Virus record (IMG/VR): IMGVR_UViG_3300017910_000855
Span: 1-54,565 of that record
Reading direction: 5' to 3' (one strand)
Origin: a virus
Taxonomy: Duplodnaviria > Caudoviricetes
Length of the DNA stretch: 54,565 nt
Shown here: positions 4,877-53,699 of the stretch, in pieces
How positions within the stretch are numbered: position 1 is the first letter of the stretch
How the letters are laid out: each line of letters opens with the position of its first letter
Translations under genes and position numbers: made by a program
Notes under the pieces: generated by a model
Told to the model about the DNA's origin: nothing
Seen by the model: only the letters and a program-made list of their open reading frames with translations
The model's database searches: none

Positions 4877-7081
4877 ATGTACAGGGTAGTCCAAGATTGG
4901 ATACCCAAAAGTGTTGTAACCAACAAGAATAGAAATAAGTCTTGGATATATGGTTACAATAAACAGTATGATGTTATTGTTATATCAAAGACCGGAGAGA
5001 TAGGAGATGTAGTCGATATTGCATCACTTAAAATAGCTTTACCAAAAGAACCAAAAGAGTGTCTTCAAAGACACTCAGATAAAAAGAAGCAGTATTGGGA
5101 AAGACAAGAGCTACCAAAACCTTTAAATAAAATATCATCCATCTTTCAGTGGAATGAGATGCCATCTGACTTCAAGTCAAGATGGGTAGATTATATAGAA
5201 GCTGAGTTTGACAATAGAGAACTTGGTTTTTGGTTTATGAATAATGGTAAACCAACTTATATAACCGGAGCTCATTATATGTATTTGCAATGGACTAACA
5301 TTGATGTTGGTTACCCTGAATACAGAGAAGCTAATAGATTATTATATATCTTTTGGGAAGCGTGTAAAGCAGACAAAAGAAGTTTCGGAATGATATATCT
5401 AAAAATTAGACGTTCAGGATTTTCTTTTATGTCTTCTTCAGAGTGTGTGAATACAGGTACTTTAGCTAAGGATTCTCGTGTAGGTATTTTATCTAAAACA
5501 GGAGCTGATGCTAAAAAAATGTTTACTGATAAAGTTGTTCCCATCAACAGTAGACTTCCATTCTTTTTCAAACCTATAATGGATGGAATGGATAAACCTA
5601 AAACAGAGTTAGCTTACAGAGTACCTGCGTCAAAGATTACTAAAAAGAATATGTATGATGTAGAAGACGATGAGATTCAAGGACTTGATACCACGATAGA
5701 TTGGAAAAATACAGATGATAACAGTTATGATGGAGAAAAACTTTTGTTACTTGTACACGATGAAAGTGGTAAATGGTTGAAACCAAATAATATACTTAAC
5801 AATTGGCGAGTTACAAAAACTTGTTTACGTTTAGGGAGTAAGATTATTGGAAAATGTATGATGGGGTCTACCTCAAATGCATTGAGCAAAGGTGGAGATA
5901 ATTTTAAAAAACTATTTTACGATTCTGATATAACAAAACGTAATGCTAATGGTCAAACCAAAAGCGGTTTATATTCACTATTCATTCCTATGGAATGGAA
6001 TATGGAAGGATTTATTGATAGGTATGGAATGCCTGTTCTTGAAAATCCTATTGAACCCATTGAAGGAGTAGATGGAGAATACATAGACCAAAGTGCATTG
6101 AACTATTGGGAGAATGAAGTTGAGTCTTTGAAACACGACCCTGATGCATTAAACGAATACTATAGACAATTCCCACGAACTGAATCTCACGCTTTTAGAG
6201 ATGAAAGCAAACAGTCATTATTTAATTTAACTAAGATATATCAACAGATAGATTATAATGACGCAATGATTACAGAACAATATGTAACTCGTGGTTCTTT
6301 TTCGTGGAAAAATGGAATCAAAGATACACAAGTAATCTTTTCTCCGGATAAAAGAGGAAGGTTCTACATAACTTGGGTTCCAAATAAAAACTTACAAAAT
6401 AACTATTACACTAAACACGGAGTCAAGTATCCCGGAAACGAACACATAGGTGCGTTTGGATGTGACTCTTACGATATTAGTGGAACGGTTGGAGGTGTTG
6501 GCTCTAATGGAGCTTTACACGGATTGACTAAATTTAGTATGGAAGAGGCACCATCTAATGAATTTTTTTTAGAATACATTGCGAGACCTCAAACTGCTGA
6601 GATATTTTTTGAAGACGTATTGATGGCTTGTGTATTTTACGGAATGCCTATATTAATAGAGAATAACAAACCAAGATTATTATACCACTTCAAAAACAGA
6701 GGGTACAGAGGATTTGCTATGAACAGACCTGATAAGGTATTCACTAAACTATCTAAAACAGAAAAAGAGTTAGGAGGAATACCAAACTCAAGTGAAGATG
6801 TAAAACAAGCTCACGCTGCTGCGATAGAATCATATATAGAAAATTTCGTAGGTTTAAGGTCAGATGAGGATATGAGTTCAATGGCTTTCAATAGAACATT
6901 GGAAGATTGGGCAAAGTTTGATATTAGCAACAGAACTAAGTATGATGCGTCTATAAGCTCAGGTTTAGCAGTAATGGCTTGTCAAAAGCATCTATATCAG
7001 CCTGAAAGAAAAGAGTCAAGAATTATGTTTAACTTTGCAAGGTATAGTAATACAGGCAAAACAAGTCAGATAATTAGATGA
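4877..7081 (+). CDS. terL: Terminase large subunit
   Basis: Walker A-like LKIRRSGFS, Walker B LLVHDESGKW, motif III GSTSN, nuclease GCDSYD and C-terminal YDASIS; start ATG 4877 preferred. Confidence 0.9.
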   Translation: MYRVVQDWIPKSVVTNKNRNKSWIYGYNKQYDVIVISKTGEIGDVVDIASLKIALPKEPKECLQRHSDKKKQYWERQELPKPLNKISSIFQWNEMPSDFKSRWVDYIEAEFDNRELGFWFMNNGKPTYITGAHYMYLQWTNIDVGYPEYREANRLLYIFWEACKADKRSFGMIYLKIRRSGFSFMSSSECVNTGTLAKDSRVGILSKTGADAKKMFTDKVVPINSRLPFFFKPIMDGMDKPKTELAYRVPASKITKKNMYDVEDDEIQGLDTTIDWKNTDDNSYDGEKLLLLVHDESGKWLKPNNILNNWRVTKTCLRLGSKIIGKCMMGSTSNALSKGGDNFKKLFYDSDITKRNANGQTKSGLYSLFIPMEWNMEGFIDRYGMPVLENPIEPIEGVDGEYIDQSALNYWENEVESLKHDPDALNEYYRQFPRTESHAFRDESKQSLFNLTKIYQQIDYNDAMITEQYVTRGSFSWKNGIKDTQVIFSPDKRGRFYITWVPNKNLQNNYYTKHGVKYPGNEHIGAFGCDSYDISGTVGGVGSNGALHGLTKFSMEEAPSNEFFLEYIARPQTAEIFFEDVLMACVFYGMPILIENNKPRLLYHFKNRGYRGFAMNRPDKVFTKLSKTEKELGGIPNSSEDVKQAHAAAIESYIENFVGLRSDEDMSSMAFNRTLEDWAKFDISNRTKYDASISSGLAVMACQKHLYQPERKESRIMFNFARYSNTGKTSQIIR
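5059..5074 (+). repeat. 16-bp palindrome copy 1 (inside terL, read as CLQRH)
   Basis: GTGTCTTCAAAGACAC, extends to GAGTGTCTTCAAAGACACTC. Confidence 0.97.
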
Positions 7082-12230: not shown

Positions 12231-12267
12231 AAGGGGGAGTGTCTTCAAAGACACTCCTACCTTTTTT
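12231..12267 (+). terminator. Intrinsic terminator after the capsid gene; its stem-loop is palindrome copy 2
   Basis: GGAGTGTCT-TCAA-AGACACTCC hairpin followed by TACCTTTTTT. Confidence 0.8.
12239..12254 (+). repeat. 16-bp palindrome copy 2 (intergenic)
   Basis: GTGTCTTCAAAGACAC. Confidence 0.97.
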
Positions 12268-25708: not shown

Positions 25709-25724
25709 GTGTCTTTAAAGACAC
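25709..25724. repeat. 16-bp palindrome copy 3 (perfectly symmetric variant, intergenic)
   Basis: GTGTCTTTAAAGACAC between stop 25706 and ATG 25739. Confidence 0.95.
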
Positions 25725-32800: not shown

Positions 32801-35800
32801 AGAAATTAATACAGAACTTGCAGAGTTAGCGGAAACAAAAAAAGTAAGACCTTCTGTAAGCACGGCTACTAACCAACAAATAGAACAAGGAAATACTTTT
32901 CAGCAAGGATTCCAAACAAACGTAGCAGGTATAGGACTTGTAGAGCAAACTTCAGATACTGATATAAGAGAAACGGCACAATCAAAATATACTATCAATG
33001 GTAAATCGTTAACACGTAGAAAGTTTTTGAACAGAATTAACGATATGTCTCCCAAGCAGTTAAAGGCAGCCAACATTACCATAGATAATGATGAGCAAGT
33101 AACTGATATATTAACTGAAAAATTTGGAACAGATGCCATTCAAGAGCAAGAAACAGGAAGCGTATCTCCGAATCAACGAACCGGAGATATACAATCGTTG
33201 GAAGAAGCGGTACGGACCGTTCAGCAAGAACAAACCACAGAACCTGAGACCACTCAGGAGGGTACGGTAGTAACAGAAGAACAAACTGTAGAGGAGCAAC
33301 CTGATGTAACTCCACAACCTGCAGTAGTTCCTCAATCACTTGTAAGACCTACACGTGCAGACGTTACTGCATTTGACAACAATACAATAGATGAAGCACG
33401 ACTTGACAGAATCCTTGCAGGGATAGCTGACAAGCAAATCGCAAACAAAAAACTTACAGTATTTCAGCAGAGAGTAGCAGAAAATAATCAAGCACGTATT
33501 GATGAAATAGTGTCTTCAAAGACACTAACAGATGAGGTTGCTGATTTAGAAGCAACTCTACAAACCCCTAAAGGAAAAGTAGATTTTAAATCAGAGTCTA
33601 AGTTTGTGCCTGATACTGATGAGGTTTCGCAAATAACCAAGACCATAAACGAGTCGCAGTCCGGTAATGTCTTTACAGATTTAGAAGAAACTACAGATGA
33701 ATCAGCATCAATAAATGTAGACGAACTAAATCAACGAACGGACAATGACATCCAAAGCATTGAAGATTTATCAATTGTAAAAGGTATACCGGTGGTCTTC
33801 ACTATTTCAGACCAACTAACTACGGGTCCTGTTACAAACGAATTGACAGGTAATACCATTGATAACCTTAGAGGTGGATTAGGATTTACCGGAACTGAAG
33901 GTAATCAAAATGCAGCGTGGGCAAACACTACCGAAGCAGAAGCAGGTACTATAATTGAGAAAGCTACGCAGGTATATGAAGCTAACAAACCAACCTTTGA
34001 AGAGTTTTGGGCAGCTAATCCTGAATACAATGGACACGTTCCTATGCCTGTTGTTAAAATGGGAGAAGGTTCTATTCTTTCAAATGAAGCTACTTTCCGG
34101 GTGTTTAAAGATAATTTAAGTAAAATACCTGAAGCTAACAGAAAGAAAGCCTTAGACGAGCTTGTAAGCAATTTACAAGCACGTATAGATGCACGTCAAG
34201 CAACAATAGATAAAGGTCAAGCATCCGAGTTGACAATAAGAAACTATAAAAAAGAAGTAGCAGGACTACAAGAACTAATCAAATTGATTAATGAAAGCGA
34301 TGCTAAACTACTTGATGATGTGGTATCAACAGAGTTTATACAACAACTGTCTCTTCCTACACGTAGAAGTTTTATAGAGCGTTTGACTTTTGGTCAACCT
34401 AATAGAGCACGTACATCTAAAAAACCAAGTAAGGGTCAAAAGAAAATACCTAATATACTTATTGAAGGTATGGACACTGACGCAGTTAATCTTGTACACC
34501 TTGCTACAATTACAGACTTAATTACAGAACCTCAGCTCAAAGATGTTCCTCAACGTAGTATCATTGCGTTACAAGCAGTAGATGTTTTGAACCCTGAAGT
34601 AATTAAAAGTGTACACCCTAACTATCCGTTTGGTGTAAAAGGTAAAACAATTGGAGTTCTACAAAATCCACAATCCATTGTATCAGTATATCCTGAAGCA
34701 TATCAAAATGCTATTAGAGGTTTAGTTGCTGAAGAAGGTAAAGGTAAAGTAGTTACAGAAGGTCAAAGAAAGAGAGCTACTATAGAAGAAAGAAAATCAA
34801 TGCCAAAAGCAGGGGAACTTGCACCATCAAGTGTAGGTACTATCCTTACAGAAACTCTTGGTGTTCAAAACGGACTACCAAATACGGAGTTTATTGGAGC
34901 TATATCGCAAGGTAATGTAGACAACGCTACCAAGTTAACTGCTTTTATGAACATAGCTTTCCCTCAAACAAACATTACAACAGATAGAGCTACGTTCGAC
35001 ACAGTAATGGAGCAAGAGAACGTACAAAAATACAAGAAGGGAGACCAAATTATTTATGGTGTTACAGTTGATGGAGATATTTATATTAATCCTGATGTAC
35101 ACAATTCAGAGTCTGCACTGTTCAATACTTCGATTCACGAGATGGGTCACGTATGGACTGATTATCTACAGACTACCAAGAAAGGTAAAGCAATATACGC
35201 TAAGGGTGTCAACCTTGTAAAGCAAACACAAGAATATCAAAGACAGTTAAAGAAGTTTGATGGCAACGAAGCTAAGGCTGCTAATGAAACTATAGCCATC
35301 TTGATTGGAAACAAAGGACAAACAATAGCAGATGCATCTTTGAAGTCTAAGTTCCAACAGTGGTTGCTTGGAATGTGGAACTATATTAAGTCGCAGTTTA
35401 CACAGACTCAAGACTTAACCGCAGAACAAATACAAGACCTAACTCTTGATGAGTTTATTGGGTCCGCACTTGCAGATATATTTGCAGGTAAGCAAATCAA
35501 ATTGACTGACAGTCAATTAAAGAAAATGAAAAACCCTGAAGCTGCATTTAGTAGTGAGATGTCTATCACTGCTATTGTAGAACGAGGTAGAGAGAATGGG
35601 TTTTCTGATGCGTCTATACGAGAAGTATTAAGAGGCAGAGGTTTTGCTGCAGCAGATATTAACGAAGCTATGACTTATCAGGTAGACCTCTTCAACGAGT
35701 TACCTTCAGAGTTCAGAAGAGTTGAGGGTGGTATTCTACGTGCGGCTAAATTATTTAATGATGTCAATGTAGCATTACAAAAGTTCGCTACATCAGGCAG

Positions 35801-38800: not shown

Positions 38801-39116
38801 GATGTTCAATGCAAGTAAAGATATACTAAAAGGAGATATGAGTTCAGAAGAGTATTACAATAATGTATACGACTTCTTAGGTATCACTCCATCATATAGA
38901 CCGGGATATGGACAGAAAGGTTCTTCAGTCAAAGGTATCATTCCACAAGGAGGTATTAAAACAAAGACAGACCTGAAGCGTTACGACCCTGAGTTGTATG
39001 AACAGGTGTATGGAGAGAGAGATAGAATTAAAAAGGAACAAAAAGAATTAAGAAAACAAGCACTTCAAGACTTGGGTTACAAAGAAGTAGGAGGTAAACT
39101 TTATCCTATTGAGTAG
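29826..39116 (+). CDS. Giant internal virion/polyvalent protein with zincin-like HExxH motif
   Basis: 3096 aa, no Cys seen; Gly-rich hydrophobic segment GIATGAGIGATG...GGAWG; SIHEMGHVW at 35136-35150. Confidence 0.75.
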   Translation: MNEEYLQELYNYLGQNDESFSAEVDFATFTSDMQDQQYAAQIYNYLGGLDDTFKMEVNVNQFFEDIGAVKKKDEPKQSGDLPSEDGSSESVEIEEVDFNTLKTPNPNEVIGRDTRAADYVDPMTMVGMYPDQNTLDLARAQQAADFKFTAQLVQQDEPELTEIQAQEEAERAVNIETETTGREEVIQTQEFNDALSKTNVEAIQMEEGEAVPYFNDMYSQYGFVFRPIGLGDAMEVTTVLADGSVAKEEIDLDPFTTKGAETESQKLKAFVQKYAKKPEEAREEAESNFAQAALKAKYLRNTPRINADGTESTVMFQSAVIDGKNVVYPTLFPINPNLSTTNPEYWTELDGMEAYEEAVKRGEVFNFGTAEEADEFAAGSWKDYNSIDAEGNRFFDERGYDYLEVRNQFDEYERARDVSFFIEDRLKEGRQQFGFGDKKELKNLTPEEQEKYGYLYTENGLLRADLEQILEREQKIVDELQEIYTDDDLQEVREDFDVFIDKQFQQLSQEASLSNASAKYIQNELEANSFAEFGVGIEELYNYIPDDVEGAQMRDAILTSYQASKDVQQLAADKYEVGQTFLDGKFDEELRGEIVENYAGMQQQITEGLNRGKAGNEILKIALGLEDVDDEESTAQIAQRIVDFMEASNTGKTSRAMSRWHSARGFREAWDAFSDNPAELALSFAANSISQMLPYGTKIIGISTGSGIATGAGIGATGFVTGPGGVLTTGGGAIAGGAWGLRTGFAATSLALEYTNAVMEAMTNNGYDVLNSNDVAIALSDENVWAEGRERGLKRGIPIAMVDMLSSGLAGRVFKVGKTASRGRRLGVQVGERLVFDPIAEATGELAAQINVGDEIDYKEIFAEAIGGIGNNAPFAALNMALDVRAQNNTNIANDLTTIAGINREVGGIFKPTPTRVSNWANNMERLGQISKETNQRIQLNLGLRQDALNVLETTQGKVDGDVLNRTMELLAAKQELESTPNRKQVFASKIKEINTELAELAETKKVRPSVSTATNQQIEQGNTFQQGFQTNVAGIGLVEQTSDTDIRETAQSKYTINGKSLTRRKFLNRINDMSPKQLKAANITIDNDEQVTDILTEKFGTDAIQEQETGSVSPNQRTGDIQSLEEAVRTVQQEQTTEPETTQEGTVVTEEQTVEEQPDVTPQPAVVPQSLVRPTRADVTAFDNNTIDEARLDRILAGIADKQIANKKLTVFQQRVAENNQARIDEIVSSKTLTDEVADLEATLQTPKGKVDFKSESKFVPDTDEVSQITKTINESQSGNVFTDLEETTDESASINVDELNQRTDNDIQSIEDLSIVKGIPVVFTISDQLTTGPVTNELTGNTIDNLRGGLGFTGTEGNQNAAWANTTEAEAGTIIEKATQVYEANKPTFEEFWAANPEYNGHVPMPVVKMGEGSILSNEATFRVFKDNLSKIPEANRKKALDELVSNLQARIDARQATIDKGQASELTIRNYKKEVAGLQELIKLINESDAKLLDDVVSTEFIQQLSLPTRRSFIERLTFGQPNRARTSKKPSKGQKKIPNILIEGMDTDAVNLVHLATITDLITEPQLKDVPQRSIIALQAVDVLNPEVIKSVHPNYPFGVKGKTIGVLQNPQSIVSVYPEAYQNAIRGLVAEEGKGKVVTEGQRKRATIEERKSMPKAGELAPSSVGTILTETLGVQNGLPNTEFIGAISQGNVDNATKLTAFMNIAFPQTNITTDRATFDTVMEQENVQKYKKGDQIIYGVTVDGDIYINPDVHNSESALFNTSIHEMGHVWTDYLQTTKKGKAIYAKGVNLVKQTQEYQRQLKKFDGNEAKAANETIAILIGNKGQTIADASLKSKFQQWLLGMWNYIKSQFTQTQDLTAEQIQDLTLDEFIGSALADIFAGKQIKLTDSQLKKMKNPEAAFSSEMSITAIVERGRENGFSDASIREVLRGRGFAAADINEAMTYQVDLFNELPSEFRRVEGGILRAAKLFNDVNVALQKFATSGRPNVIGRRRVKSFADIRQKAQELIQDHPIYKEQNEQVQMELRSGLDRSLGYRGNKNVSQEIGKIREALKQRRVGAKNLKDAQLRLKNFIRANLPKSKNYSQAQINRLINTVANTNLDNFQAQTEKVLKIVEQQRAKIKRDVIADIVKTVKAKARPRKQSGKPRPKGIDAIGQVVFANIKTVMDAVSITNPEARAQALQDIKDKLDANRIVIDNAIQKQINNEELTLQEESLMQLQLAYDQFSDLDTASLEVAQALLEDVKQQKAESILRFNNRRLQKAARAEAVAEEATNQIKETNADLFNEDGSLKDSNELNEDRDAIQKDFTARGIVKKVFLKIRDNIFGRAQSKITNFKNLLTHLGTVTNFLDRKNKGLNIFRDKVYRKLNRMEEVALQNMRVMRQKVDEIASEAGIEGGFIGVESLVNRALGTSKTGVPNTKTLNLVTTKTGRKYKSEFNANQLLRIYALSKNPVQRAKLEAQGITDAVLADIATDLGPELTSFADKMVDYLSTDYFNQTNSVYKQVNGVNLGFVENYFPTKTIAAKVDAKMLEDGDFNGIFSAETAPAFKDRVDYGSDVNLKEGTFTNVLMNHMETMERYKAMAAGVQELNSFFNIPAVNTLLDVSGTKTLVKTLVNATVNPQSAAKADGVSSGVLEWFQRKFTSFALAFKVIQIAKQATSFVNAFEQYSYLPKDSKVPKVLQGPLDLMMFTVDGAGVLFDMAKDLVGLDGAISKARKMSAQFDQRVREGLEGDVYGLETGSQTFKQAGKGTGLYRRFVDGFKRLSSRPTIIGDIMGVMGYYINYKRNIANGMSEAQALEEFNDYNATQQTRRATEKIPLQLKGDFASKGFTMFGSTLFLQINKVMSSATNIMRALGSGKVPSKQDIRGFYLNFAVANILFTGMSNIALLTRGDSEDRDAFYRKLKDAMMGLNLMYQIPYLGAAIEKGINTYRGDRKPVSDVTNPFASIQSKIQKNFRDNPDSAFKNTILPLIEIAMGAQVDPFIGMFNASKDILKGDMSSEEYYNNVYDFLGITPSYRPGYGQKGSSVKGIIPQGGIKTKTDLKRYDPELYEQVYGERDRIKKEQKELRKQALQDLGYKEVGGKLYPIE
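33510..33525 (+). repeat. 16-bp palindrome copy 4 (in giant gene, read as VSSKT)
   Basis: TAGTGTCTTCAAAGACACTA. Confidence 0.97.
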
Positions 39117-39131
39117 TGTCTTCAAAGACAC
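39116..39131 (+). repeat. 16-bp palindrome copy 5 (convergence point of the two arms)
   Basis: TAG-TGTCTTCAAAGACA-CTA, 39114-39133; both ends are the stop codons of the convergent genes. Confidence 0.97.
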
Positions 39132-41598: not shown

Positions 41599-42834
41599 TT
41601 AATACAAAGTTAGTAAATCCCTTTTAAAGTGAGTGACCGTGTAGTCTTTCTTCTTTATCACTGCTCTGTATATATCTTTTTCTATACCGTGCTTGGAGAA
41701 TATCCAATACACTTTACTGTTGACTCTATCCTTAGTAGTCATACGGTCTCGGCTTTGCCAATAGCTTGTGGCTGAGAAGTCTATGTTGTAGTAAACGATA
41801 GCGTCTGCTTCACGTAAGCTGATTCCTTCACGACCTGAAACAATTTGTAACGCAATGTTTTTATCCGTGTTACTAAACTCTTCAAGTGTGTTACAAAGTG
41901 TGTCTTTGAAGACACTCTTCAATGCTTTGTATTCTTCCCGAAACTTGTAGAAGATGGCTATCTTTTGGTTTCCAAAGTAATCTTTAATGAACTCTGCTTT
42001 GGTTCTGTCTATTGTTATCGAGTCTCCACTTTCAAATTTTACAGTGCCTGAATAAAGCTGATGTAACTTCTGCATAAGTTTAGCAGGAGTATCTCCAAGT
42101 ATAGTGTTATCATTACCCTCTACCACTCTATCTTTTTTCAACCTTTCTGCTAACACATATGTGGTGTTATTCATTTCCACCCACATTATCTCTTCATTTA
42201 TTTCGTTTTTAAAACCGGCTTCCTTTTGCGTGAAAGATATGGTGTATGGTTTCATTTCATCAAGTATCTTTTTCATACCTCTTGAATAATCATTTACATA
42301 ATTAGAATTAATTTTTCTTTGACGAACCTGAACATACTCACGAGCGAACTTGTAAAAGGAAGTGTGTTTACTGAATGGGTTAGATGGAATACCAAACACC
42401 TGATGATACATTTGACTGTAGCTCTCAGGTGTTGGTGTTCCTGACATCAAACATAAATACGGATTGTATTTCTTGACAATGTCTTTAATATCTTTAGCTC
42501 TCTTGCTTGGCTTGGGGAACGCACCAAGTGTGTGTGCTTCGTCTACAATTAGCATATCATAAGGAAGATTATCAATCTTATGAAGCGACTCGTAGTTAAT
42601 AACAGTTATGTTATATGATGGCTTCAATAAAAGAAAGTCTGATTCAATACTGCTTATGGCTTTCTTCTTTGTAACAAACAAAACTTCTTTACATCCTAAC
42701 ACTTGTGCAATGCCAAGACTCGTTAATGTTTTTCCTGTCCTTACTTCCATAGCGAGATAAACAAATCCTTTATCTTGGATTATCTCAGTTGCTTTATCTA
42801 TTATTTCCCATTGGTACTTTCTGTACTTGAACAT
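41599..42834 (-). CDS. Superfamily 2 (SNF2-like) helicase
   Basis: YQ motif, EVRTGKT (Walker A), LIVDEAH, SGTP, GREGISL, QSRDR. Confidence 0.9.
   Translation of the reverse strand: MFKYRKYQWEIIDKATEIIQDKGFVYLAMEVRTGKTLTSLGIAQVLGCKEVLFVTKKKAISSIESDFLLLKPSYNITVINYESLHKIDNLPYDMLIVDEAHTLGAFPKPSKRAKDIKDIVKKYNPYLCLMSGTPTPESYSQMYHQVFGIPSNPFSKHTSFYKFAREYVQVRQRKINSNYVNDYSRGMKKILDEMKPYTISFTQKEAGFKNEINEEIMWVEMNNTTYVLAERLKKDRVVEGNDNTILGDTPAKLMQKLHQLYSGTVKFESGDSITIDRTKAEFIKDYFGNQKIAIFYKFREEYKALKSVFKDTLCNTLEEFSNTDKNIALQIVSGREGISLREADAIVYYNIDFSATSYWQSRDRMTTKDRVNSKVYWIFSKHGIEKDIYRAVIKKKDYTVTHFKRDLLTLY
41900..41915 (-). repeat. 16-bp palindrome copy 6 (in helicase, read as VFKDT)
   Basis: GTGTCTTTGAAGACAC on + strand. 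Confidence 0.97.
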
Positions 42835-43049: not shown

Positions 43050-43254
43050 CTATAATTTTTTTTACTATACTACATCTTTCAAAGTCTTCAACCGAAGCAA
43101 AGTAATCAAGCATATCTTCAAGTGTCTTTGAAGACACAGGTTCTTCAGGGTTGAATACAAAATATCCTTCATCACTTATTATTAGTTCCTCCAATGTTTT
43201 ATCCCCTGTAAAAACATTTAAGGTGTTAATCATTGCTCGGTTTATATCAGACAT
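43012..43254 (-). CDS. Hypothetical protein with UVR-like C-terminal motif
   Basis: LDYFASVEDFERCSIVKK. Confidence 0.65.
   Translation of the reverse strand: MSDINRAMINTLNVFTGDKTLEELIISDEGYFVFNPEEPVSSKTLEDMLDYFASVEDFERCSIVKKIIDEGRIVGRDLRI
43122..43137 (-). repeat. 16-bp palindrome copy 7 (coding, VSSKT)
   Basis: GTGTCTTTGAAGACAC on + strand. Confidence 0.97.
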
Positions 43255-46157: not shown

Positions 46158-46322
46158 TTAATTAATTATAATGTTACGTTCCAAAAAATATATTGTTGCC
46201 TTGATTATTTGTTTTTTCTCGGCACGAGTTTCACAAGTGTTTGGAACTTCCACTACGTGGACTCGTTTATTTTTAAATAGTCGTGTCTTCAAAGACACTA
46301 TTAGGTTTTTAAATTTCCTCAT
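46158..46322 (-). CDS. Small basic hypothetical protein
   Basis: Likely start MRKFKN at 46322. Confidence 0.5.
   Translation of the reverse strand: MRKFKNLIVSLKTRLFKNKRVHVVEVPNTCETRAEKKQIIKATIYFLERNIIIN
46283..46298 (+). repeat. 16-bp palindrome copy 8 (only copy antisense to local transcription; read as VSLKT)
   Basis: GTGTCTTCAAAGACAC on + strand within the minus-strand arm. Confidence 0.97.
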
Positions 46323-47072: not shown

Positions 47073-47600
47073 TTAAATGTGCTTTTTGATTTCTGCTTTC
47101 GCAAGATTAGGTATAGAATACTTTTGTTGAAGAGTCTTGACTATCTTGGTTAGACCCATAGACTTGTTAGCTACAACCCACTTCATTACTTTATCCCAAT
47201 TCTCATCTCCAATATCTAATTTGATTTTGCTTGGTGTCTTTGAAGACACTGAGTCTTGGTTGGCTATAGCATTCTTAACTTCATCTGCTGAGGCAACTGA
47301 TGTTTCGAGTCCGATACCAAAGTTTGCTAACGCTCTACCCCACGCTGAGGTCTCGCAGTTCTCTACATAAGATGTCTTATTAATAAAGGTACTTCCCTTC
47401 TCTTCCTCTGCCATTCCTGTGGCGATTACTTTTCCTTCATCGTCAGAAATTGTAGCAAGTATAAGGATTGATTTGTCTGTCTTCTCTAACACTTCTGATG
47501 TTAGTGAATAGTTTGGGTAAGTCTTTCTAAAATAGATGAGTCTCTCGTTTACTTCAACGTACTCTTTACCCTTGATGTTTACTGTTTTTAATTTAGTCAT
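47073..47600 (-). CDS. Single-strand annealing protein (Rad52/Sak-like)
   Basis: IKGKEYVEVNERL, ATGMAEE, ENCETSAWGRALANFGIG; adjacent to exonuclease and SSB. Confidence 0.75.
   Translation of the reverse strand: MTKLKTVNIKGKEYVEVNERLIYFRKTYPNYSLTSEVLEKTDKSILILATISDDEGKVIATGMAEEEKGSTFINKTSYVENCETSAWGRALANFGIGLETSVASADEVKNAIANQDSVSSKTPSKIKLDIGDENWDKVMKWVVANKSMGLTKIVKTLQQKYSIPNLAKAEIKKHI
47234..47249 (-). repeat. 16-bp palindrome copy 9 (coding linker, VSSKT)
   Basis: GTGTCTTTGAAGACAC on + strand. Confidence 0.97.
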
Positions 47601-48486: not shown

Positions 48487-48506
48487 AACTATAATGTTTG
48501 ATTGAG

Positions 48507-48538: not shown

Positions 48539-48813
48539 TCTTTTTGATTCTTTCTTATCTGCACTTTCAATAAAAGCAGGTATCCAATTAAGTCAGACAC
48601 CGTGTCTTCGGTTGCGTCAGTTATTCCACGCATCTTAATACGAGAAAGTTTATCGTCTATCCTCGCACACAACCCTTCCACTGCATCCAACTTACTGAAT
48701 ATCTTTGGTGGATTGTTAGCCGTATCGCCATATGCTTTATTCTTTTCAATGAGTAGCATTACTATTTTTCGTGCCTCATCTTTTATCAGGTCAGCCGTCT
48801 TACTCATTGCCAT
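48523..48813 (-). CDS. DUF1599/nucleotide-modification-associated domain 1-like protein
   Basis: EKNKAYGD, ARIDDKLSRI, EDTVSDLIGYLLL. Confidence 0.75.
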   Translation of the reverse strand: MAMSKTADLIKDEARKIVMLLIEKNKAYGDTANNPPKIFSKLDAVEGLCARIDDKLSRIKMRGITDATEDTVSDLIGYLLLLKVQIRKNQKDLHNK

Positions 48814-49150
48814 AATATGTATTAAAGACAACCTCTTCCAACAATGGTAGTTCAGTAGACACTGCGTCTCCTGTTTCTGTAACTGTCCACCAATCTCCAT
48901 TCTTTAGCAACTGAATGTATCGGTTTCCAATGTACATCATCACTTGCGTACAGTCTTCACTAACCGTTCCTTTCTGCTCAAAGTTTTCGAAGAAATCCTT
49001 TTTGGTTATGAGTCTTCCTGTGTCTTTGAAGACACTAAGTGTTAGCGGTTCGTCTTTGTCCGCTAATTGTTGCATCCTTTGGATGTAGTTTGTGTCTGCT
49101 TTACTGCGTAACTTTTCGGCAGTAGCTTCCTTTAAATAAATTGATTTCAT
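48800..49150 (-). CDS. Hypothetical protein
   Basis: 116 aa ORF with AT-rich leader. Confidence 0.7.
   Translation of the reverse strand: MKSIYLKEATAEKLRSKADTNYIQRMQQLADKDEPLTLSVFKDTGRLITKKDFFENFEQKGTVSEDCTQVMMYIGNRYIQLLKNGDWWTVTETGDAVSTELPLLEEVVFNTYYGNE
49020..49035 (-). repeat. 16-bp palindrome copy 10 (coding, VFKDT)
   Basis: GTGTCTTTGAAGACAC on + strand. Confidence 0.97.
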
Positions 49151-49151
49151 T

Positions 49152-49370
49152 TTAATTAAATTTTATATCTAAATTTAGATTGGTTATTAATATGTGTTCA
49201 AGCTCATCGTATGTGATATTGAAAAAGTCCTGTGCTTTATCCGTATAGATATAGGAGTCGTTTACTTTATCAAAAGTCCACGTGCTTTTCCCATATCTTT
49301 CTTGGGTTATGCGACTTGCAATTTCACTAACAACAGGAATGAAGTCCTCGTTATCAATAGTGTTTTTCAT
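49152..49370 (-). CDS. Hypothetical protein
   Basis: Likely start MKNTID at 49370. Confidence 0.65.
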   Translation of the reverse strand: MKNTIDNEDFIPVVSEIASRITQERYGKSTWTFDKVNDSYIYTDKAQDFFNITYDELEHILITNLNLDIKFN

Positions 49371-49375
49371 TTGAT

Positions 49376-49624
49376 TTAATTTTCTGAAGACCATTCTTTG
49401 TGCGTCATTACCAAGCAGTCTCCTACTATTACACGACCACACATTGCTGATACTTCAAGGTTCATAGGTAAATTTTCTAAGTGTCCTTCCTCGTTTACAA
49501 GTATTACCCAATCACTTGTATACACAGGTTCTATCCACCCACCAACTGCTTTCTGCTTTGCCTCAAGACCTGCATAATCGTAGTCGTTGATGGTTCTTCC
49601 GTCTGCTTTAATTATCCGTGCCAT
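49376..49624 (-). CDS. DUF3846-like protein
   Basis: QKAVGGWIEPV, LVNEEG...LPMN, IVGDCLV. Confidence 0.75.
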   Translation of the reverse strand: MARIIKADGRTINDYDYAGLEAKQKAVGGWIEPVYTSDWVILVNEEGHLENLPMNLEVSAMCGRVIVGDCLVMTHKEWSSEN

Positions 49625-49767
49625 AACTCATCCTCCTTCATTTGTTCTTCAACGTCATCAAGGTGTGCGTTGACGGTGCGTACTACGTGCAATGGCACGT
49701 TCACTAACTTCTCAACTGTTCCGTCATCGAATTTTATTTCGATGTTCCAAGCAACTATCGTTTTCAT
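49612..49767 (-). CDS. Small hypothetical protein (51 aa, absent from ORF track)
   Basis: MKTIVAWNIEIKFDDGTVEKLVNVPLHVVRTVNAHLDDVEEQMKEDELWHG*; fills the gap with overlaps on both sides. Confidence 0.65.
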   Translation of the reverse strand: MKTIVAWNIEIKFDDGTVEKLVNVPLHVVRTVNAHLDDVEEQMKEDELWHG

Positions 49768-50048
49768 AAGTGACCTCCTATCTCTAATTTATCACAATCA
49801 AATCTCCATTCTGATTCTGATTCAGGTTCATTCATAAATGATTTGTTGTGGTCATTAGCATCATCATCTGTTCCGAAGCCATACTCGTATGTTGCTTCGT
49901 TCATTGCGTTATCTATCTTATCGACATACAAATCTTCATTATCCCATAAGTATTCGATTAACTGTGCCGAGTTTAAGTTTTCAGGCACGTCTATTTCTAC
50001 CGATGCAAATTTGTGGTAGACACTGCGTTGTTGTATTCTAACTTTCAT
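49764..50048 (-). CDS. Acidic hypothetical early protein
   Basis: Likely start MKVRIQ at 50048, downstream of a promoter. Confidence 0.7.
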   Translation of the reverse strand: MKVRIQQRSVYHKFASVEIDVPENLNSAQLIEYLWDNEDLYVDKIDNAMNEATYEYGFGTDDDANDHNKSFMNEPESESEWRFDCDKLEIGGHL

Positions 50049-50071
50049 TTGATTTAAGTTTAATGTTTGTT

Positions 50072-50103
50072 CAAAGATAGTACAAAGTTTTGAACTATCC
50101 AAA
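50072..50103 (-). promoter_or_regulatory. Bacteroidota sigma-A promoter
   Basis: Minus strand TTTG-N20-TATCTTTG, matching the -33/-7 consensus. Confidence 0.8.
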
Positions 50104-50406
50104 TTTTATATCCGTGAGTTTGACCCACCAATGTCCGTCAATGATTTTCTTATTCGCTTGACTCCACCATTGTGTCTTTGAAGACACTGACTTAGGTAGG
50201 TATCCAACTTCGATTCCTATCTTCAACCCCAACTTCAGTGCCTCATCAATCTCATCGTGCGACTCAATCAGTGAGTCGGTATCATCATCGTGAATAACGT
50301 ACAACTCGTGACCGAGCCATATCTCTTCACGTTTTTTCTCTCCCTGTTTCATTTGGTCAGTAACGTCTAACCAAACGAACCTGTCTTTAGATAAATGTAT
50401 TGCCAT
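50095..50406 (-). CDS. Hypothetical early protein
   Basis: 103 aa ORF coupled to the upstream gene. Confidence 0.7.
   Translation of the reverse strand: MAIHLSKDRFVWLDVTDQMKQGEKKREEIWLGHELYVIHDDDTDSLIESHDEIDEALKLGLKIGIEVGYLPKSVSSKTQWWSQANKKIIDGHWWVKLTDIKFG
50172..50187 (-). repeat. 16-bp palindrome copy 11 (coding, VSSKT)
   Basis: GTGTCTTTGAAGACAC on + strand. Confidence 0.97.
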
Positions 50407-50648
50407 TACTCATCCCATTTTAATTCCAACTCGTAGTCGTCTGTTGCAACTTGGTCTATCGTTTGAAAGATTTGCTCCGTAATCCAATCGTTGCTCAGTG
50501 CGTCTTTTAATACTCCCATTGCTACTTCGGAGTCGCATTTGTAATTCTGCGTCACATCTTGCAAGTGCCACAGAGAAAAGGTTTGAAACCCACGCACCTC
50601 TAACTCTTTGCGTAAGTCGTGCGTTGATACTGATTTTAAATTTTCCAT
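50406..50648 (-). CDS. Hypothetical early protein
   Basis: Likely start MENLKS at 50648; the longer ORF-track start runs into the ribozyme. Confidence 0.7.
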   Translation of the reverse strand: MENLKSVSTHDLRKELEVRGFQTFSLWHLQDVTQNYKCDSEVAMGVLKDALSNDWITEQIFQTIDQVATDDYELELKWDE

Positions 50649-50666
50649 AATGTATGATTTAAGATT

Positions 50667-50717
50667 TCTGTTTCTGTCTTTTGACTTCATCAGCACGGAC
50701 ACACATCCGTGAACAGA
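50667..50717 (-). ncRNA. Hammerhead ribozyme, type III, variant (HH-B)
   Basis: Minus strand UCUG-U-U^-CACGGA[UGUGUG]UCCGUG-CUGAUGA-AGUC[AAAA]GACA-GAAA-CAGA; core intact; GUU triplet and A-A mismatch at the base of stem II. Confidence 0.8.
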
Positions 50718-50720
50718 GCA

Positions 50721-50736
50721 GTGTCTTTGAAGACAC
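50721..50736 (-). repeat. 16-bp palindrome copy 12 (intergenic, abutting ribozyme HH-B)
   Basis: GCAGTGTCTTTGAAGACACTGC, 50718-50739. Confidence 0.97.
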
Positions 50737-50747
50737 TGCCTTGCGGT

Positions 50748-51824
50748 TTAGGAGAAACGTAGCACCTCTTCTTGCCCAAACCAAGTATCACATCCATTGC
50801 AGTGATAGTTATTGAAACCGTCAAACTCCAAGTCGTGACAACAGTCAACACAAATAGGATTGTCGTTTGGATTGTAGTCGTCAGCAGACATATCATCAAA
50901 CAAATCAACCTGTGTGCAAGGTGGTGTGTCGTCAACAAAGTCAACTGTATCAACCCAACGTCTTGTTGGTGTAACAACCCTTTGGTAGTCTTTGATATGA
51001 TTACTACCATTCCATTCCTTTTCCTCTTGTGGATTGAAGTATATCCAAGCAGTGATGGTTTTGTTCTTCATCTTGATAGGTATCTGCTTTCTGCAGTACC
51101 ATTGTGGGTGTCCTTCCAATCCGTCTAACCTACGTAGAGTATCGTCTGATACTTTGAACACGTCTACAACTACGTTGTGACCTTTCCCTTTCTTCTCAAT
51201 CAGAAATGGGATACCACGTGATACCATTGGGTACTTGTCTTTGGTCTCGCCTTTTCCAAGATGCTTTGAATTAGTTAGGTAAGTGTAGTAGTTACCAAAC
51301 CCTTTCTTTAGTGTACCATACACCGCCACAACATTGCTTTGCAATACGTTGGTTTTCGAATACCATACTCCGTCTTTCAATGTATACAAATGCTTGTTGA
51401 AGATTTGAAACGAACGAGTACGGGTATTGATTGCCACGAAACGAGCATCGAACTTTGCCAACGATTGTTTCCAAGTGTGACGAGGAGAACGACCCAACTT
51501 GATAGCCAAGTCTTCTGTGTCTGTCATATTTTTGTTGCCGTAGCCACGAACGGTGCCGTTCATCATAAGCAACTCGTCTTTGTTGTTACCGCAGACGAAT
51601 GGGTGTGTGTTTTCCTTACAGATTTTACCAACCGTTGCATACCTGAAGTGTGCAATGTATGGTCTGTCGTTGTCCAACACACCGAACTCTTTTGATTGAT
51701 GATAGCTGACCTCGAACGTGTCGAGCCATACGATTCCCAATCCGTGAGGATTGATACGTGATGAATTTTTAAGTATCTCACGTGATACTGATTTACCTTT
51801 TTGTTTGATAATAATAATACACAT
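50748..51824 (-). CDS. Class II glutamine amidotransferase fused to gamma-glutamylcyclotransferase (AIG2-like) and a C-terminal Zn ribbon
   Basis: True start M-C-I-I (Ntn nucleophile Cys2) at 51824; NPHGLG, HFRYAT, HPF, NG, TDTE; VAVYGTLKKG, LDGLEGHP.WY.R; CVDC...CNGC. Confidence 0.9.
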   Translation of the reverse strand: MCIIIIKQKGKSVSREILKNSSRINPHGLGIVWLDTFEVSYHQSKEFGVLDNDRPYIAHFRYATVGKICKENTHPFVCGNNKDELLMMNGTVRGYGNKNMTDTEDLAIKLGRSPRHTWKQSLAKFDARFVAINTRTRSFQIFNKHLYTLKDGVWYSKTNVLQSNVVAVYGTLKKGFGNYYTYLTNSKHLGKGETKDKYPMVSRGIPFLIEKKGKGHNVVVDVFKVSDDTLRRLDGLEGHPQWYCRKQIPIKMKNKTITAWIYFNPQEEKEWNGSNHIKDYQRVVTPTRRWVDTVDFVDDTPPCTQVDLFDDMSADDYNPNDNPICVDCCHDLEFDGFNNYHCNGCDTWFGQEEVLRFS

Positions 51825-51844
51825 AGTGTTTGGTTTTGTGAGCA

Positions 51845-51860
51845 GTGTCTTTGAAGACAC
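51845..51860 (-). repeat. 16-bp palindrome copy 13 (5' leader between promoter and GATase start)
   Basis: GTGTCTTTGAAGACAC on + strand. Confidence 0.97.
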
Positions 51861-51888
51861 AGAACTCTGATTTAACATTTGATTTAAA

Positions 51889-51920
51889 CAAAGATACGAC
51901 TAAATTTAGACATATCCAAA
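51889..51920 (-). promoter_or_regulatory. Bacteroidota sigma-A promoter
   Basis: Minus strand TTTG-N20-TATCTTTG; shares TTTGGATA with the 50072 promoter. Confidence 0.8.
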
Positions 51921-52082
51921 TTACCTACTGACAACTGCAGTAAATTTATTTCTGACTATCCATTTGTACGTGCCTACATTTTCATTGTAGATTTTGTCAA
52001 TGGCTTCCCATTTCGTGTGAGCAGGTACAACTTTGATTAGCTTACCTGCATACCTTACTTTAAAATATCTCATCGCTTCCAT
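51921..52082 (-). CDS. Small hypothetical protein (53 aa, absent from ORF track)
   Basis: MEAMRYFKVRYAGKLIKVVPAHTKWEAIDKIYNENVGTYKWIVRNKFTAVVSR*; TAATG coupling. Confidence 0.7.
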   Translation of the reverse strand: MEAMRYFKVRYAGKLIKVVPAHTKWEAIDKIYNENVGTYKWIVRNKFTAVVSR

Positions 52083-52249
52083 TACAATTCAAATAATTCA
52101 TCAAGCAAGTAACCTTTGGTTCTGTTGATGTAGTTAATAAAATTGTCGCAATGATTCTTGTCGTTGAACTCTTTGGTCACGACCCACTCGCCACGATTAT
52201 TTCCGTACGAGACTTGTCCTGTCTTGAAGACTAATTGAACTTTGTACAT
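52082..52249 (-). CDS. Small hypothetical early protein
   Basis: Likely start MYKVQL at 52249 after an A-rich leader; the longer ORF-track start overlaps the ribozyme. Confidence 0.7.
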   Translation of the reverse strand: MYKVQLVFKTGQVSYGNNRGEWVVTKEFNDKNHCDNFINYINRTKGYLLDELFEL

Positions 52250-52268
52250 AACTTTTAATTTAATGTTT

Positions 52269-52330
52269 GACATAGAGGTAGTGTCTTTGAAGACACCACC
52301 TTTCGGGTATTCAACCCTCATCAGTATGCC
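52269..52330 (-). ncRNA. Hammerhead ribozyme, type I (HH-C); stem III is the 16-bp palindrome
   Basis: Minus strand GGCAUA-CUGAUGA-GGGU[UGAAU]ACCC-GAAA-GGUGGUGUCU[UCAA]AGACACUACC-U-C^-UAUGUC; all three stems pair, canonical core, CUC triplet. Confidence 0.88.
52281..52296 (-). repeat. 16-bp palindrome copy 14 (inside ribozyme HH-C)
   Basis: GTGTCTTTGAAGACAC on + strand. Confidence 0.97.
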
Positions 52331-52548
52331 TATACTCGGTCTGCTTTCCAACCTTGATAGATTAGTGAAAAGATAACTCCACTAATGAACAACAAGAACA
52401 TTCCAACGAACCCTACATACACCCACTGATACCACACAAAAGTATGTTGTGATATGATGTGAATGAATAAACGTAGCACCATTGATAGAACTCCGATGGC
52501 AACGATTGTTGTTACTGACTTTTCGATTGTGTTAACTAAATTTCTCAT
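52330..52548 (-). CDS. Small two-TM membrane protein flanked by ribozymes
   Basis: Likely start MRNLVN at 52548 (72 aa); two hydrophobic helices. Confidence 0.7.
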   Translation of the reverse strand: MRNLVNTIEKSVTTIVAIGVLSMVLRLFIHIISQHTFVWYQWVYVGFVGMFLLFISGVIFSLIYQGWKADRV

Positions 52549-52575
52549 AATGTTTGATATTAAAATTATTTGTTT

Positions 52576-52626
52576 CCTGTTTCGACCTTTTGGTCTCATC
52601 AGCACAAGCACTCACTTGTGGACAGG
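52576..52626 (-). ncRNA. Hammerhead ribozyme, type III (HH-A)
   Basis: Minus strand CCUG-U-C^-CACAAG[UGAGUG]CUUGUG-CUGAUGA-GACC[AAAA]GGUC-GAAA-CAGG; fully canonical core, GUC triplet, G10.1-C11.1. Confidence 0.93.
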
Positions 52627-52647
52627 GGGAGCATTCGCTCCCTCTCA

Positions 52648-53667
52648 TTATCTCAACCCTTTGGATTGTATTTCCTCTCGGAACTTAGCGAGAGCGATGT
52701 CACTCTCGTCAACTCCACGTTTGATGTATGTACCCCAAACTTGTCGGTTACCGCTCATTGAAAGTCGGTTTGGTCTTCCGCTCCACCACTTTTCGAACCA
52801 ACCGATTGTGCTTTGCTCCACACGACCTGTCTTGACGAACTTGTGAAAGTCTTTTGCCAACTCAATGACCGCATCGGTCTTGGTCTCGTTCTTGTCGTAC
52901 ATTCCCATAAGGATTGGTCTGACTGCATTCCAAAACCCTCGTATGCTCTTGCCATTGACCCCATAGTCAAGTATTAAGTACATTAGCTCGTAACGTCTCA
53001 TCAACTGCTTTACTGACTGCACTCTGCTCGGTATACGGAACTCGATACACTCGTCAACGATTTTGCAAACAGAGTATTTTACTACTCGCTCTTGATGTCT
53101 CTCGAAACGGAACTCACTCATCATTCTTGGATTCCACTTGCAGTAGTGATTCGACAAACGATGTCTGAACACTGACAACAGGATTGATGCATATGGAGCA
53201 ACTTTGTCAGCCAACTCTTGACCTGTCAACCCCTTACAAGCAACTGTGATGTGACCACCGCAACTGCTATCGCTCGGACTGAACTCATCATTGATGATGT
53301 GCTTGGCTTCAACAAACATATTGAACACCTTTGTTCGCCACATTGACTTACCTACCAAAGGTAGAACGTGTGTGACTGCTTCATAACCGCAACTACTATC
53401 AGTCTCAAACCCACAAAATAATGGGTACTCCTTGATTGAACTCCTGTGCAACCTCGTTTTCTCGATTTCAAAACCGATAGTGAACTTGCTCTCGAACTCG
53501 TCTCCGTCTACAACAACATTGGTTCTGTCTGTAGATTGCAACCCTTTGATTTCAGATTGCTTTGCTTTGGTTCTGAAGATTGGACTTGGTTTGCTATGGT
53601 ATGATGATACACTACCACGTCTGTCTGTGTCTCTGATTTCTTCGAACCTTGTTACTAAATTATTCAT
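52648..53667 (-). CDS. Putative amidoligase (COOH-NH2 ligase, glutamine synthetase-like fold)
   Basis: TIGFEIEK, ETDSSCGYEAVT, DSSCGGHITV, IEFRIP. Confidence 0.8.
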   Translation of the reverse strand: MNNLVTRFEEIRDTDRRGSVSSYHSKPSPIFRTKAKQSEIKGLQSTDRTNVVVDGDEFESKFTIGFEIEKTRLHRSSIKEYPLFCGFETDSSCGYEAVTHVLPLVGKSMWRTKVFNMFVEAKHIINDEFSPSDSSCGGHITVACKGLTGQELADKVAPYASILLSVFRHRLSNHYCKWNPRMMSEFRFERHQERVVKYSVCKIVDECIEFRIPSRVQSVKQLMRRYELMYLILDYGVNGKSIRGFWNAVRPILMGMYDKNETKTDAVIELAKDFHKFVKTGRVEQSTIGWFEKWWSGRPNRLSMSGNRQVWGTYIKRGVDESDIALAKFREEIQSKGLR

Positions 53668-53683
53668 TGTGCTACGTGTTTTT

Positions 53684-53699
53684 GTGTCTTTGAAGACAC
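53684..53699 (-). repeat. 16-bp palindrome copy 15 (intergenic, 16 nt before amidoligase start)
   Basis: GTGTCTTTGAAGACAC on + strand. Confidence 0.97.

Follow-up and report, generated by a model that had tools for sequence, protein, structure and literature searches.

Our results demonstrate that a 16-bp palindrome, GTGTCTTCAAAGACAC, is repeated through the 54,565-base stretch IMGVR_UViG_3300017910_000855 (here, the window), that its letters are under selection at the nucleotide level, that it occupies conserved slots in a family of related phages, that other lineages have replaced it in concert throughout their genomes, and that it is embedded in hammerhead ribozymes. The window is a complete assembly in a single contig and corresponds to the ~54.6-kb genome of a marine-type podophage; PHROG and Pfam family scans, which took in ~40 of its roughly 60 open reading frames (ORFs), identify it as a tailed phage. 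The reading that we favor, at somewhat less than an even chance, is that the palindrome is an operator of the first early protein, a polypeptide of 214 amino acids (aa), with sites arranged like those of KorB or like stoperators, and that it doubles as an RNA hairpin. We infer the binding of the 214-aa protein to the word on DNA, and the effect of that binding, from the comparisons described below.

In the window, GTGTCTTCAAAGACAC has 14 exact copies, on the + strand at 5059, 12239, 33510, 39116, and 46283 and on the - strand at the other nine positions (Table 1); 100 shuffles that kept the dinucleotide content gave a mean of 0.00 copies and a maximum of 0. A search with GTGTCTTNNAAGACAC that allowed up to two mismatches gave 15 matches against 0.27 expected, the fifteenth being the TA-centered copy at 25709. 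Arms are perfect in 15/15, which indicates that the window contains no degenerate or decayed copies. An earlier, sequence-only reading of the window had reported 15 copies at these positions and judged their frequency to be beyond chance, and both statements are borne out. It was also correct that 11 of the 15 copies lie in the last 15.5 kb (at or beyond 39065), which is the early arm, and that copies inside genes are read in three sense frames, namely, CLQRH (5059), VSSKT (33510, 43122, 47234, and 50172), and VFKDT (41900 and 49020). Its division into eight genic and seven intergenic copies becomes seven (with 49020 uncertain) and eight on our recount, as the GGACT-domain gene start that relatives support (MCIIIIKQ) leaves copy 51845 ahead of the coding sequence and copy 52281 falls within a hammerhead. 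Its description of the copies as oriented with transcription holds in the window, where TTCAAA is the sense-strand reading in 12 of 13 and 46283, the sole copy with a TG center on that strand, is the exception; it fails in the family, where the sense-strand center of the helicase slot is TG in 19 and CA in 2 of 25 relatives. Nor are the copies an artifact of assembly, a concern raised in the same reading: contigs from two DNA runs of different studies are identical to the window across 47461-53706 (0 differing letters), and the same slots recur in many independent IMG/VR contigs. Apparent loose ends at 46279, 46300, 49037, 50720, and 53683 were considered as recombination joints and rejected, since they match the flanks of other window copies and are partial contig alignments; the read data gave no evidence of recombination at the copies.

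The exact word is present in at least 120 IMG/VR stretches, and 151 of 155 retrieved loci, among them the 120 stretches identified solely by the word, have proteins in common with the window, which indicates that the word is specific to this phage family. Use of the word by a host found no support in a scan of bacterial genomes, in which the 80 matches listed, of at least 120, were single and taxonomically scattered, with no host enrichment. Exceptions in that scan were two contigs of metagenome-assembled genomes, WTJX01000555.1 (L249 and L278 among our numbered relatives) and JBMZDR010000022.1 (L301), binned as Cytophagales and Flavobacteriaceae, respectively, one of 56.5 kb with 5 copies and one of 32 kb with 2 copies. 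By size and copy number, both may be phages of this family, and they offer a hint of host range at most. When family sites were placed on window coordinates through protein matches, conserved slots were found within the terminase and helicase genes, after the capsid-like, exonuclease, and GGACT-domain genes, upstream of the GGACT-domain gene, and between early genes 1 and 2 (locus counts in Table 1). In 25 relatives, a further slot, absent from the window, precedes the first early gene by 206 to 357 nucleotides (nt) and has no preferred center (TA 9, TG 4, CA 2, and CG 2).

Synonymous-site conservation at coding copies, which had been proposed as a check in the sequence-only reading, was examined for the copy in the terminase gene. 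Among 82 terminase genes collected by protein similarity (one of the six search peptides adjoins the palindrome site), the site falls in a variable linker of the protein. CLQRH is encoded by 31 of the 82, and the exact 16-mer is found in 29 of these 31. The five motif codons are 97 to 100% uniform, compared with a mean of 59% for the commonest codon in 27 invariant-residue control columns of the same sequences. Terminases without the word carry other peptides of equal length (VYKRS, IHSRS, and TPQRH), which argues that the word was not inserted. The terminase palindrome is under selection at the nucleotide level, and its synonymous sites are frozen.

The 16-mer is the lineage version of a family-wide element composed of a 5-bp outer arm (here GTGTC/GACAC) and a shared TT-YR-AA core. 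At least eight versions are found in relatives, with the arms GTGTCTT, GTGTCCT, GTCTCTT, GTCCGTT, GAGGGTT, GAGAGTT, GTGTCGTT, and GTGTACA. The closest GenBank record, MW202828.1 (71 to 75% amino acid identity, followed by Flavobacterium "elemo" and Cellulophaga podophages), contains 0 copies of the window word and 14 copies of GTGTCGTTAACGACAC, all in the early arm; most of them lie just past a stop codon, and seven have an ATG 16 to 23 nt downstream. Other full versions are GTCCGTT-YR-AACGGAC, GTGTACA-YR-TGTACAC, GTGTCCT-YR-AGGACAC, GTCTCTT-YR-AAGAGAC, GAGGGTT-YR-AACCCTC, and GAGAGTT-YR-AACTCTC, and a few relatives have GTGTCT arms around a free four-base center. No enriched 12-mer was detected in the first 50 kb of the elemo phage NC_055852.1. 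Copies agree with one another within each genome and occupy the window's slots (for example, just upstream of the GGACT-domain gene start and before hammerheads), and the in-gene copies of other lineages are found at different places, such as the primase gene. Concerted replacement of the word across whole genomes, together with new in-gene copies, is expected from a sequence-specific trans-acting reader and not from structure alone.

A candidate for this reader is the product of the first early gene (53703-54347), which is encoded in 80/80 loci anchored on the neighboring 339-aa gene. AlphaFold2 with a 27-sequence alignment gave a predicted local distance difference test (pLDDT) score of 84.5 and a model with a helical N-terminal domain containing a helix-turn-helix (HTH) and a small beta/alpha C-terminal part; the predicted HTH helices span residues 77-85 and 89-104, with the sequence "..VFGWQKSFGYKMVKAG.." A model from the single sequence (pLDDT 47) was discarded. 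As a homodimer, the protein reached an ipSAE of 0.83, compared with 0.00 for the best control, with at least 97% of contacts common to the runs and a partner pLDDT of 85. Among solved structures, 20 of 30 homodimers and 1 of 23 single chains came up to this mark, counts that are only rough because our own alignment was used. The predictions support a symmetric dimer, short of proof. Pfam gave no match for the 27 aligned relatives of the protein, Foldseek gave nothing in the PDB at an E value of ≤0.001, and the BFVD matches of the model were four relatives only, without names. A protein atlas yielded, as leads only, DUF3102 (26%), a Borrelia partition protein, and a ParB_N protein (TM 0.35). 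Any likeness to the DNA-binding domains of ParB/KorB-type proteins is at present a weak lead.

The second predicted HTH helix changes with the palindrome in most lineages. In relatives with GTGTCT-type palindromes, 76 nonredundant proteins retain [QK]KS[FY]x[YFH]K..K down to ~34% identity, with K89, S90, and K94 invariant. The corresponding helix is NKSFFYDMVK in GTCCGT-type relatives, despite 44 to 45% overall identity, ..SDRSQANLLVR.. in the GAGGG type, and ..GARTTPDLLVR.. in the GAGAG type; the GTCTC, GTGTCG, and GTGTAC types each have yet another helix. Columns that discriminate the classes make up 6 of 19 in residues 84-102 and 12 of 121 elsewhere. In 79 newly fetched loci, the canonical helix occurred with GTGTC arms in 76/76 of those that had any repeated stem; this A1 alignment scan tests one direction only, because the helix itself was the search pattern. 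Other binders were considered and set aside: for an HTH protein of the DnaA_C type (40354-40878) and two small conserved proteins (620-787 and 45877-46155), the identity table, in which their coverage is thin, revealed no relation to the type of palindrome.

The second setting of the word is RNA. Hammerhead cores are present in the flanks of relatives, and a pattern search on the hammerhead consensus (a CUGANGA ... GAAA core with three stems and an NUH site for cleavage, in order) was applied to the window. Three sequences in the window have this core, these stems, and an NUH site. All of them are on the - strand, which is the sense strand, and lie within 2 kb of the early operon. The type I hammerhead at 52269-52330 has stem I, GGCAUA/UAUGUC, followed by CUGAUGAG, stem II, GAAA, and a stem III that consists of copy 52281 extended by GGUG/UACC; the predicted cut falls after the C at 52275. 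Its minimum-energy fold is a three-way junction (z score, -4.65), and predicted minimum-energy folds agree with the assignment for all three hammerheads (z scores, -4.65, -3.38, and -4.18). Ribozymes nearly identical to that at 50667-50717 are present in L126 and L129; beside it, the start of the next gene is probably the ATG after the hammerhead rather than the GTG at 50702 (50637-50702). Rfam cmscan reported no hammerhead in the whole window at E values up to 1 or in five relatives at the gathering score. As the window's three went unreported and the family contains dozens more, curated models seem to miss this group.

When both strands of the window and 35 related stretches were searched, 76 hammerheads were found, 76/76 on the sense strand. 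Among the 58 of type III, the palindrome lies directly 5' in 36, another hairpin of at least 6 bp in 16, and none was found in 6; among the 18 of type I, the palindrome forms stem III in 13. The slot before the 52576 hammerhead holds the palindrome in 22 relatives and an unrelated hairpin (52627-52642) in the window, which suggests that the position needs a hairpin and that the family word usually supplies it. With either ribozyme layout, cutting would leave an upstream product whose 3' end lies a few bases past a hairpin. A hairpin with a U tract, the arrangement of an intrinsic terminator, is present at 12239 only, where the stem is extended by GGAG..CUCC and followed by U6 (-21.3 kcal/mol; z score, -5.71); the other 14 copies have no U tract. 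Copy 50721 has a stem extended by GGCA..UGCU and ends where the type III hammerhead starts. Copy 51845 has outer pairing (GAG../..CUC) across an internal loop, and its slot holds each lineage's own palindrome. Judged by their predicted folds, the intergenic copies appear to be RNA hairpins of the early transcript. Two RNA runs, X1 and X2, contained only low-depth contigs of relatives (shares of 0.07 and 0.06).

Table 1. Copies of the palindrome in the window and the elements associated with them
Feature	Position	Strand	Remarks
Copy in terminase large subunit gene, frame C-L-Q-R-H	5059..5074	+	Exact match; slot common to 44 family loci
Copy 19 nt after 496-aa virion structural (capsid-like) gene	12239..12254	+	Slot common to 34 loci
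TA-centered, fully symmetric copy between two structural genes	25709..25724	.	3 nt past stop, 14 nt before ATG
Copy in 3096-aa gene, frame V-S-S-K-T	33510..33525	+	Exact match
Copy forming the entire gap where the genome arms converge	39116..39131	+	1-base overlap with each stop codon
Copy in helicase gene, frame V-F-K-D-T	41900..41915	-	Slot common to 25 loci, center mostly reversed there
Copy in 80-aa ORF, V-S-S-K-T	43122..43137	-	Orthologous copy in L128
Intergenic copy, 10 nt past exonuclease stop	46283..46298	+	Slot common to 18 loci (CA 6, TG 6)
Copy in 175-aa gene, V-S-S-K-T	47234..47249	-	Orthologous copy in L128
Copy in 251-nt stretch, 116-aa ORF or intergenic	49020..49035	-	Exact match
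Copy in 103-aa gene, V-S-S-K-T	50172..50187	-	Orthologous copy in L128
Intergenic copy 12 nt after GGACT-domain gene	50721..50736	-	Slot common to 23 loci
Copy 20 nt upstream of supported GGACT-domain gene start (MCIIIIKQ)	51845..51860	-	Slot common to 31 loci
Copy forming apical part of stem III, type I hammerhead	52281..52296	-	Pattern search and fold
Copy between early genes 1 and 2	53684..53699	-	4 nt past stop, 16 nt before ATG; slot common to 23 loci
Type I hammerhead	52269..52330	-	Pattern search and fold
Type III hammerhead, GUU cleavage site, A-A pair at stem II base	50667..50717	-	Directly 3' of copy 50721
Type III hammerhead, canonical core	52576..52626	-	Pattern search and fold
Unrelated GC-rich hairpin, GGGAGC-GAAU-GCUCCC	52627..52642	-	In slot before 52576 hammerhead
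First early gene, 214 aa (P0001), candidate binder	53703..54347	-	Predicted HTH at residues 77-104; predicted symmetric homodimer
Terminase (large subunit)	4853-7081	+	PHROG/Pfam scans
Portal	7078-9513	+	PHROG/Pfam scans

The sequence-only reading had left a site for a dimeric DNA-binding protein and a repeated RNA hairpin as alternatives, and each has gained support, the one from the candidate HTH dimer and the other from the embedding of copies in hammerheads and a terminator. In the operator reading that we favor, a dimer of the first early protein would bind the palindromes on DNA, and with sites spread over the genome, concentrated in the early operon and, in relatives, with one upstream of it, early transcription would be modulated or shut off. 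Because the site is a palindrome, it could serve a second time at intergenic slots, placed where the early RNA needs a hairpin: as stem III at 52281, as a 3'-end hairpin at 50721 (where it would end the upstream product of the type III hammerhead cut), as the terminator at 12239, and at the convergence of the arms at 39116. Placement at such positions would explain the ribozyme and terminator contexts as well as the mild bias of the center. It is possible, if rather doubtful, that a single sequence has two full readings, as the double-stranded DNA operator of a lineage-specific regulator and, in RNA, as a ribozyme stem or guard hairpin, so that transcription control is coupled to processing. 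Equally tentative is the corollary of this double reading that, as the specificity of the protein drifts, operators and ribozyme stems are rewritten together. A bolder form would have the early protein or another factor bind the RNA hairpin and switch hammerhead cleavage on or off.

Several observations weigh against the operator reading. The 214-aa protein has no sequence match in Pfam, PHROG, or the PDB (nothing in the PDB below an E value of 1.7), and its structural likenesses are within the range of noise: in the VIA comparison, KorB 1r71_A had a Z score of 5.1 (root mean square deviation [rmsd], 4.1; 95 aligned), with the best row at 5.9, 8qa8_A one of 4.7 (rmsd, 2.9; 80 aligned), and Spo0J 1vz0_A one of 4.7 (rmsd, 4.6; 98 aligned), and Foldseek placed P1 ParB at E values of 0.5 to 0.7. 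Helix and palindrome both follow phylogeny, so their covariation is not independent in each lineage. L486 and L381 have the canonical helix with mostly GTGTCC arms, L362 and L420 likewise have it with GTGTCC or GTGTCA arms, and in 3 of 33 GGACT-anchored relatives (L131, L137, and L150) the fetched stretch contains no more than one GTGTCT-stem palindrome. Other points suggest pairing. The sense-strand center is biased in the family (CA 73, TA 30, TG 28, and CG 15); compensatory double changes account for 4 of 18 two-mismatch variants, compared with a rough chance share of ~3% by our own arithmetic, a count that excludes the GTGTCG-arm group (MW202828, L151, and L137); one terminase carries a synonymous double change, TGC...AGG, that leaves the arms complementary; and unrelated hairpins take the place of the palindrome before 16 of the 58 type III hammerheads. 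Lastly, we infer each of the steps from a dimeric HTH protein to binding of the word to repression.

The main rival is that the word acts only as an RNA hairpin, which would shield the 3' ends that hammerhead cuts and exonucleases leave and insulate the A-rich leaders of the next gene, perhaps with a sequence-specific RNA-binding factor on the hairpin, and that the palindrome does nothing at the DNA level. We regard this as less likely than the operator reading, yet it accounts directly for the location of the word in or before ribozymes (stem III in 13 of 18, directly 5' of 36 of 58, and another hairpin in 16 more), for the sense strand of 76/76 ribozymes, for the similar ribozyme context in other lineages, for the stable folds (z scores, -4.65, -3.38, and -5.71), for the excess of CA (73) over TG (28) centers and the compensatory changes, for the MW202828 copies, mostly past stops and seven of them shortly before an ATG, and for the unrelated hairpin in one window slot. 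What structure alone leaves unexplained is that all copies in a genome are identical, that words switch in concert, and that exact in-gene copies sit at lineage-specific places. Symmetry also extends through the center (T7/A10 and Y8/R9, giving four symmetric bases, T-Y-R-A), which a hairpin loop would not require; the bare hairpin is worth only -7.1 kcal/mol; the center is mostly reversed at the helicase slot; and no RNA-binding protein was recognized among the ORFs scanned. Single-arm transitions showed no strand preference (G-U 7 versus C-A 6 on the sense strand and 14 versus 10 by strand), and because this asymmetry is lacking, the mismatch test does not separate RNA from DNA. Taken with the pairing signals, the symmetric loop, the reversed helicase center, the unbiased upstream slot, and the weak hairpin lead us to conclude that both DNA and RNA levels constrain the word.

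A signal in single-stranded DNA, as a hairpin or cruciform that marks lagging-strand primase sites or links early modules exchanged between phages, would suit a palindrome that functions on either strand, copies that are densest in the early and replication region beside the primase, helicase, and exonuclease genes, compensatory changes, G-T and C-A mismatches without strand bias, and the small variable early ORFs flanked by copies. We consider it improbable: it leaves unexplained why the first early protein has a different helix in other lineages, the seeming motif-to-motif junctions are partial alignments of contigs from other copies, and 16 bp is short for homologous exchange. Least probable, in our estimate, is a parS-like centromere or loading site for a ParB-type partition or condensation system in a plasmid-like carrier state. 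A 16-bp palindrome with a YR center, found several times in genes and clustered near replication genes, does resemble parS, and the weak ParB/KorB leads for the first early protein point the same way; however, the ORFs scanned (~40 of roughly 60) yielded neither the CTP-binding N-terminal domain of ParB nor an ATPase of the ParA type, no integrase or plasmid maintenance gene was seen there, the protein has 214 aa only, and the fold matches are within noise. An N4-type hairpin promoter for a virion RNA polymerase, considered because of the two giant ORFs, seems less probable and was provisionally set aside: no polymerase family was found (in the PHROG scan, the 3256-aa ORF matched a virion structural family only, and the 3096-aa ORF had no match), and the copies within genes and among late genes argue against it.

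The closest published parallel is that of the Cluster O mycobacteriophages, in which a 17-bp palindrome, TGTTCGG-N3-CCGAACA, of unknown function is present in 34 copies in Corndog (PMC4351075). The likeness to what that text describes includes 7-bp invariant inverted arms, a variable center, tens of copies, greater density toward one genome end, about one-third of copies in coding regions, and no lysogeny genes; the same text describes no ribozyme link, lineage versions, or candidate binder (PMC4351075). The window palindrome belongs to the same descriptive class (invariant arms, variable center, location partly in ORFs, nontemperate phage) and differs in sequence, center length, host phylum, and phage family.

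RK2 contains about 12 KorB sites, and to our knowledge, no second role for them in RNA has been described. The operators are short perfect palindromes, near and far from promoters over a ~60-kb replicon, that are bound by a dimeric HTH global repressor (PMC11790492). The window word shares with ParB-parS and KorB sites that it is a short, multicopy palindrome found in part within genes. KorB itself belongs to the ParB family and acts as a CTP-dependent sliding clamp; it has an N-terminal domain, and no such domain was found in the 214-aa protein. Stoperators of Cluster A phages, bound in L5 by gp71, are likewise many identical sites in short operon gaps, and are thought to let the bound phage protein block elongation; they differ in being asymmetric, in having a strict orientation with transcription, and in that a temperate phage's immunity repressor binds them (PMC4351075). 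The window word is a palindrome with an orientation bias only, and no lysogeny genes were seen among the ORFs scanned.

In the early transcript of T7, RNase III cuts between early genes and leaves a 3' hairpin on the upstream mRNA. Here, the cut would be the RNA's own, and the hairpin is 6 to 7 bp (up to 12 bp with flanks). Hairpins of 6 to 12 bp are too short for the requirements of RNase III. Hammerheads that flank genes in operons of phages and prophages were reported by Perreault et al. in 2011, who propose processing into gene-length mRNAs (PMC3088659). Punctuation of a polycistronic phage transcript by several hammerheads between genes is common to that description and to the window (PMC3088659), and the differences are that here one genome-wide palindrome supplies stem III or the preceding hairpin and that the word is also found in genes and in the late region without a ribozyme. 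A literature search over titles and the openings of abstracts found no paper on the palindrome or the hammerheads of this family; the alignments in Dataset S1 of PMC3088659 might already include some of these metagenomic ribozymes.

New here are a word common to operator-like sites and ribozyme stems, a natural series of lineage words, and a candidate protein. Repeated palindromes in lytic phages, such as those of Cluster O, have been described before without explanation, and this family provides a tractable case, with metagenomic relatives in the hundreds, no fewer than eight versions of the word, a single candidate protein with a helix that changes with most of them, and ribozyme stems that the word itself supplies. 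Should the protein bind, the family would offer a natural specificity series for a new HTH family and a clear example of joint selection on one sequence at the DNA and RNA levels. With 0/3 of the window's hammerheads reported by Rfam, it also appears that many phage hammerheads escape curated models.

The genome is organized in two arms. The + strand arm carries the terminase and portal genes, virion proteins including the 3256-aa and 3096-aa ORFs, an amidase, and a holin. The - strand arm, from 54347 down to 39131, contains the early and replication genes, with a GGACT-domain gene, an exonuclease, a primase, a helicase, a DnaA_C-type protein, and a PDDEXK nuclease. No integrase, repressor family, or plasmid maintenance gene was recognized among the ORFs scanned, and a search for near-identical phage records for the early region found none. 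The PHROG virion structural match of the first giant ORF (15002-24772) covers its first 763 residues, and the second (29826-39116) has 28% identity to its MW202828 counterpart. An Rfam snoR4a match within a structural gene (13309-13385) scored 34.6 bits, under the gathering score of 50, and was taken as chance.

The window is ~5 kb shorter than most relatives. In relatives, the gap that separates the divergent arms contains short C-rich repeats (CCGCTCC, CCCTGT, and CCGTTA-like), which lie 70 nt upstream of the palindrome found ahead of the first early gene; they are carried by L057, L067, L124, L125, L133, L135, L136, L138, and others. This region may represent an origin or a genome end. Both the C-rich repeats and the palindrome copy upstream of the first early gene are missing from the window. 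Within the early arm, 220 nt (49145-49364) are skipped in a relative's contig from an RNA run, and the contigs of both DNA runs leave the window sequence at 49383 for one common alternative sequence; this is a variable cassette of small ORFs. The 339-aa gene (52648-53667) has no Pfam match and stands beside the GGACT-domain gene in 80/80 loci fetched with it. The GGACT-domain protein (50748-51878) also has weak matches to class II glutamine amidotransferases. The start of its longest ORF (51878) looks wrong, and the relatives and the conserved MCIIIIKQ point to a start ~54 nt downstream (51824-51878).

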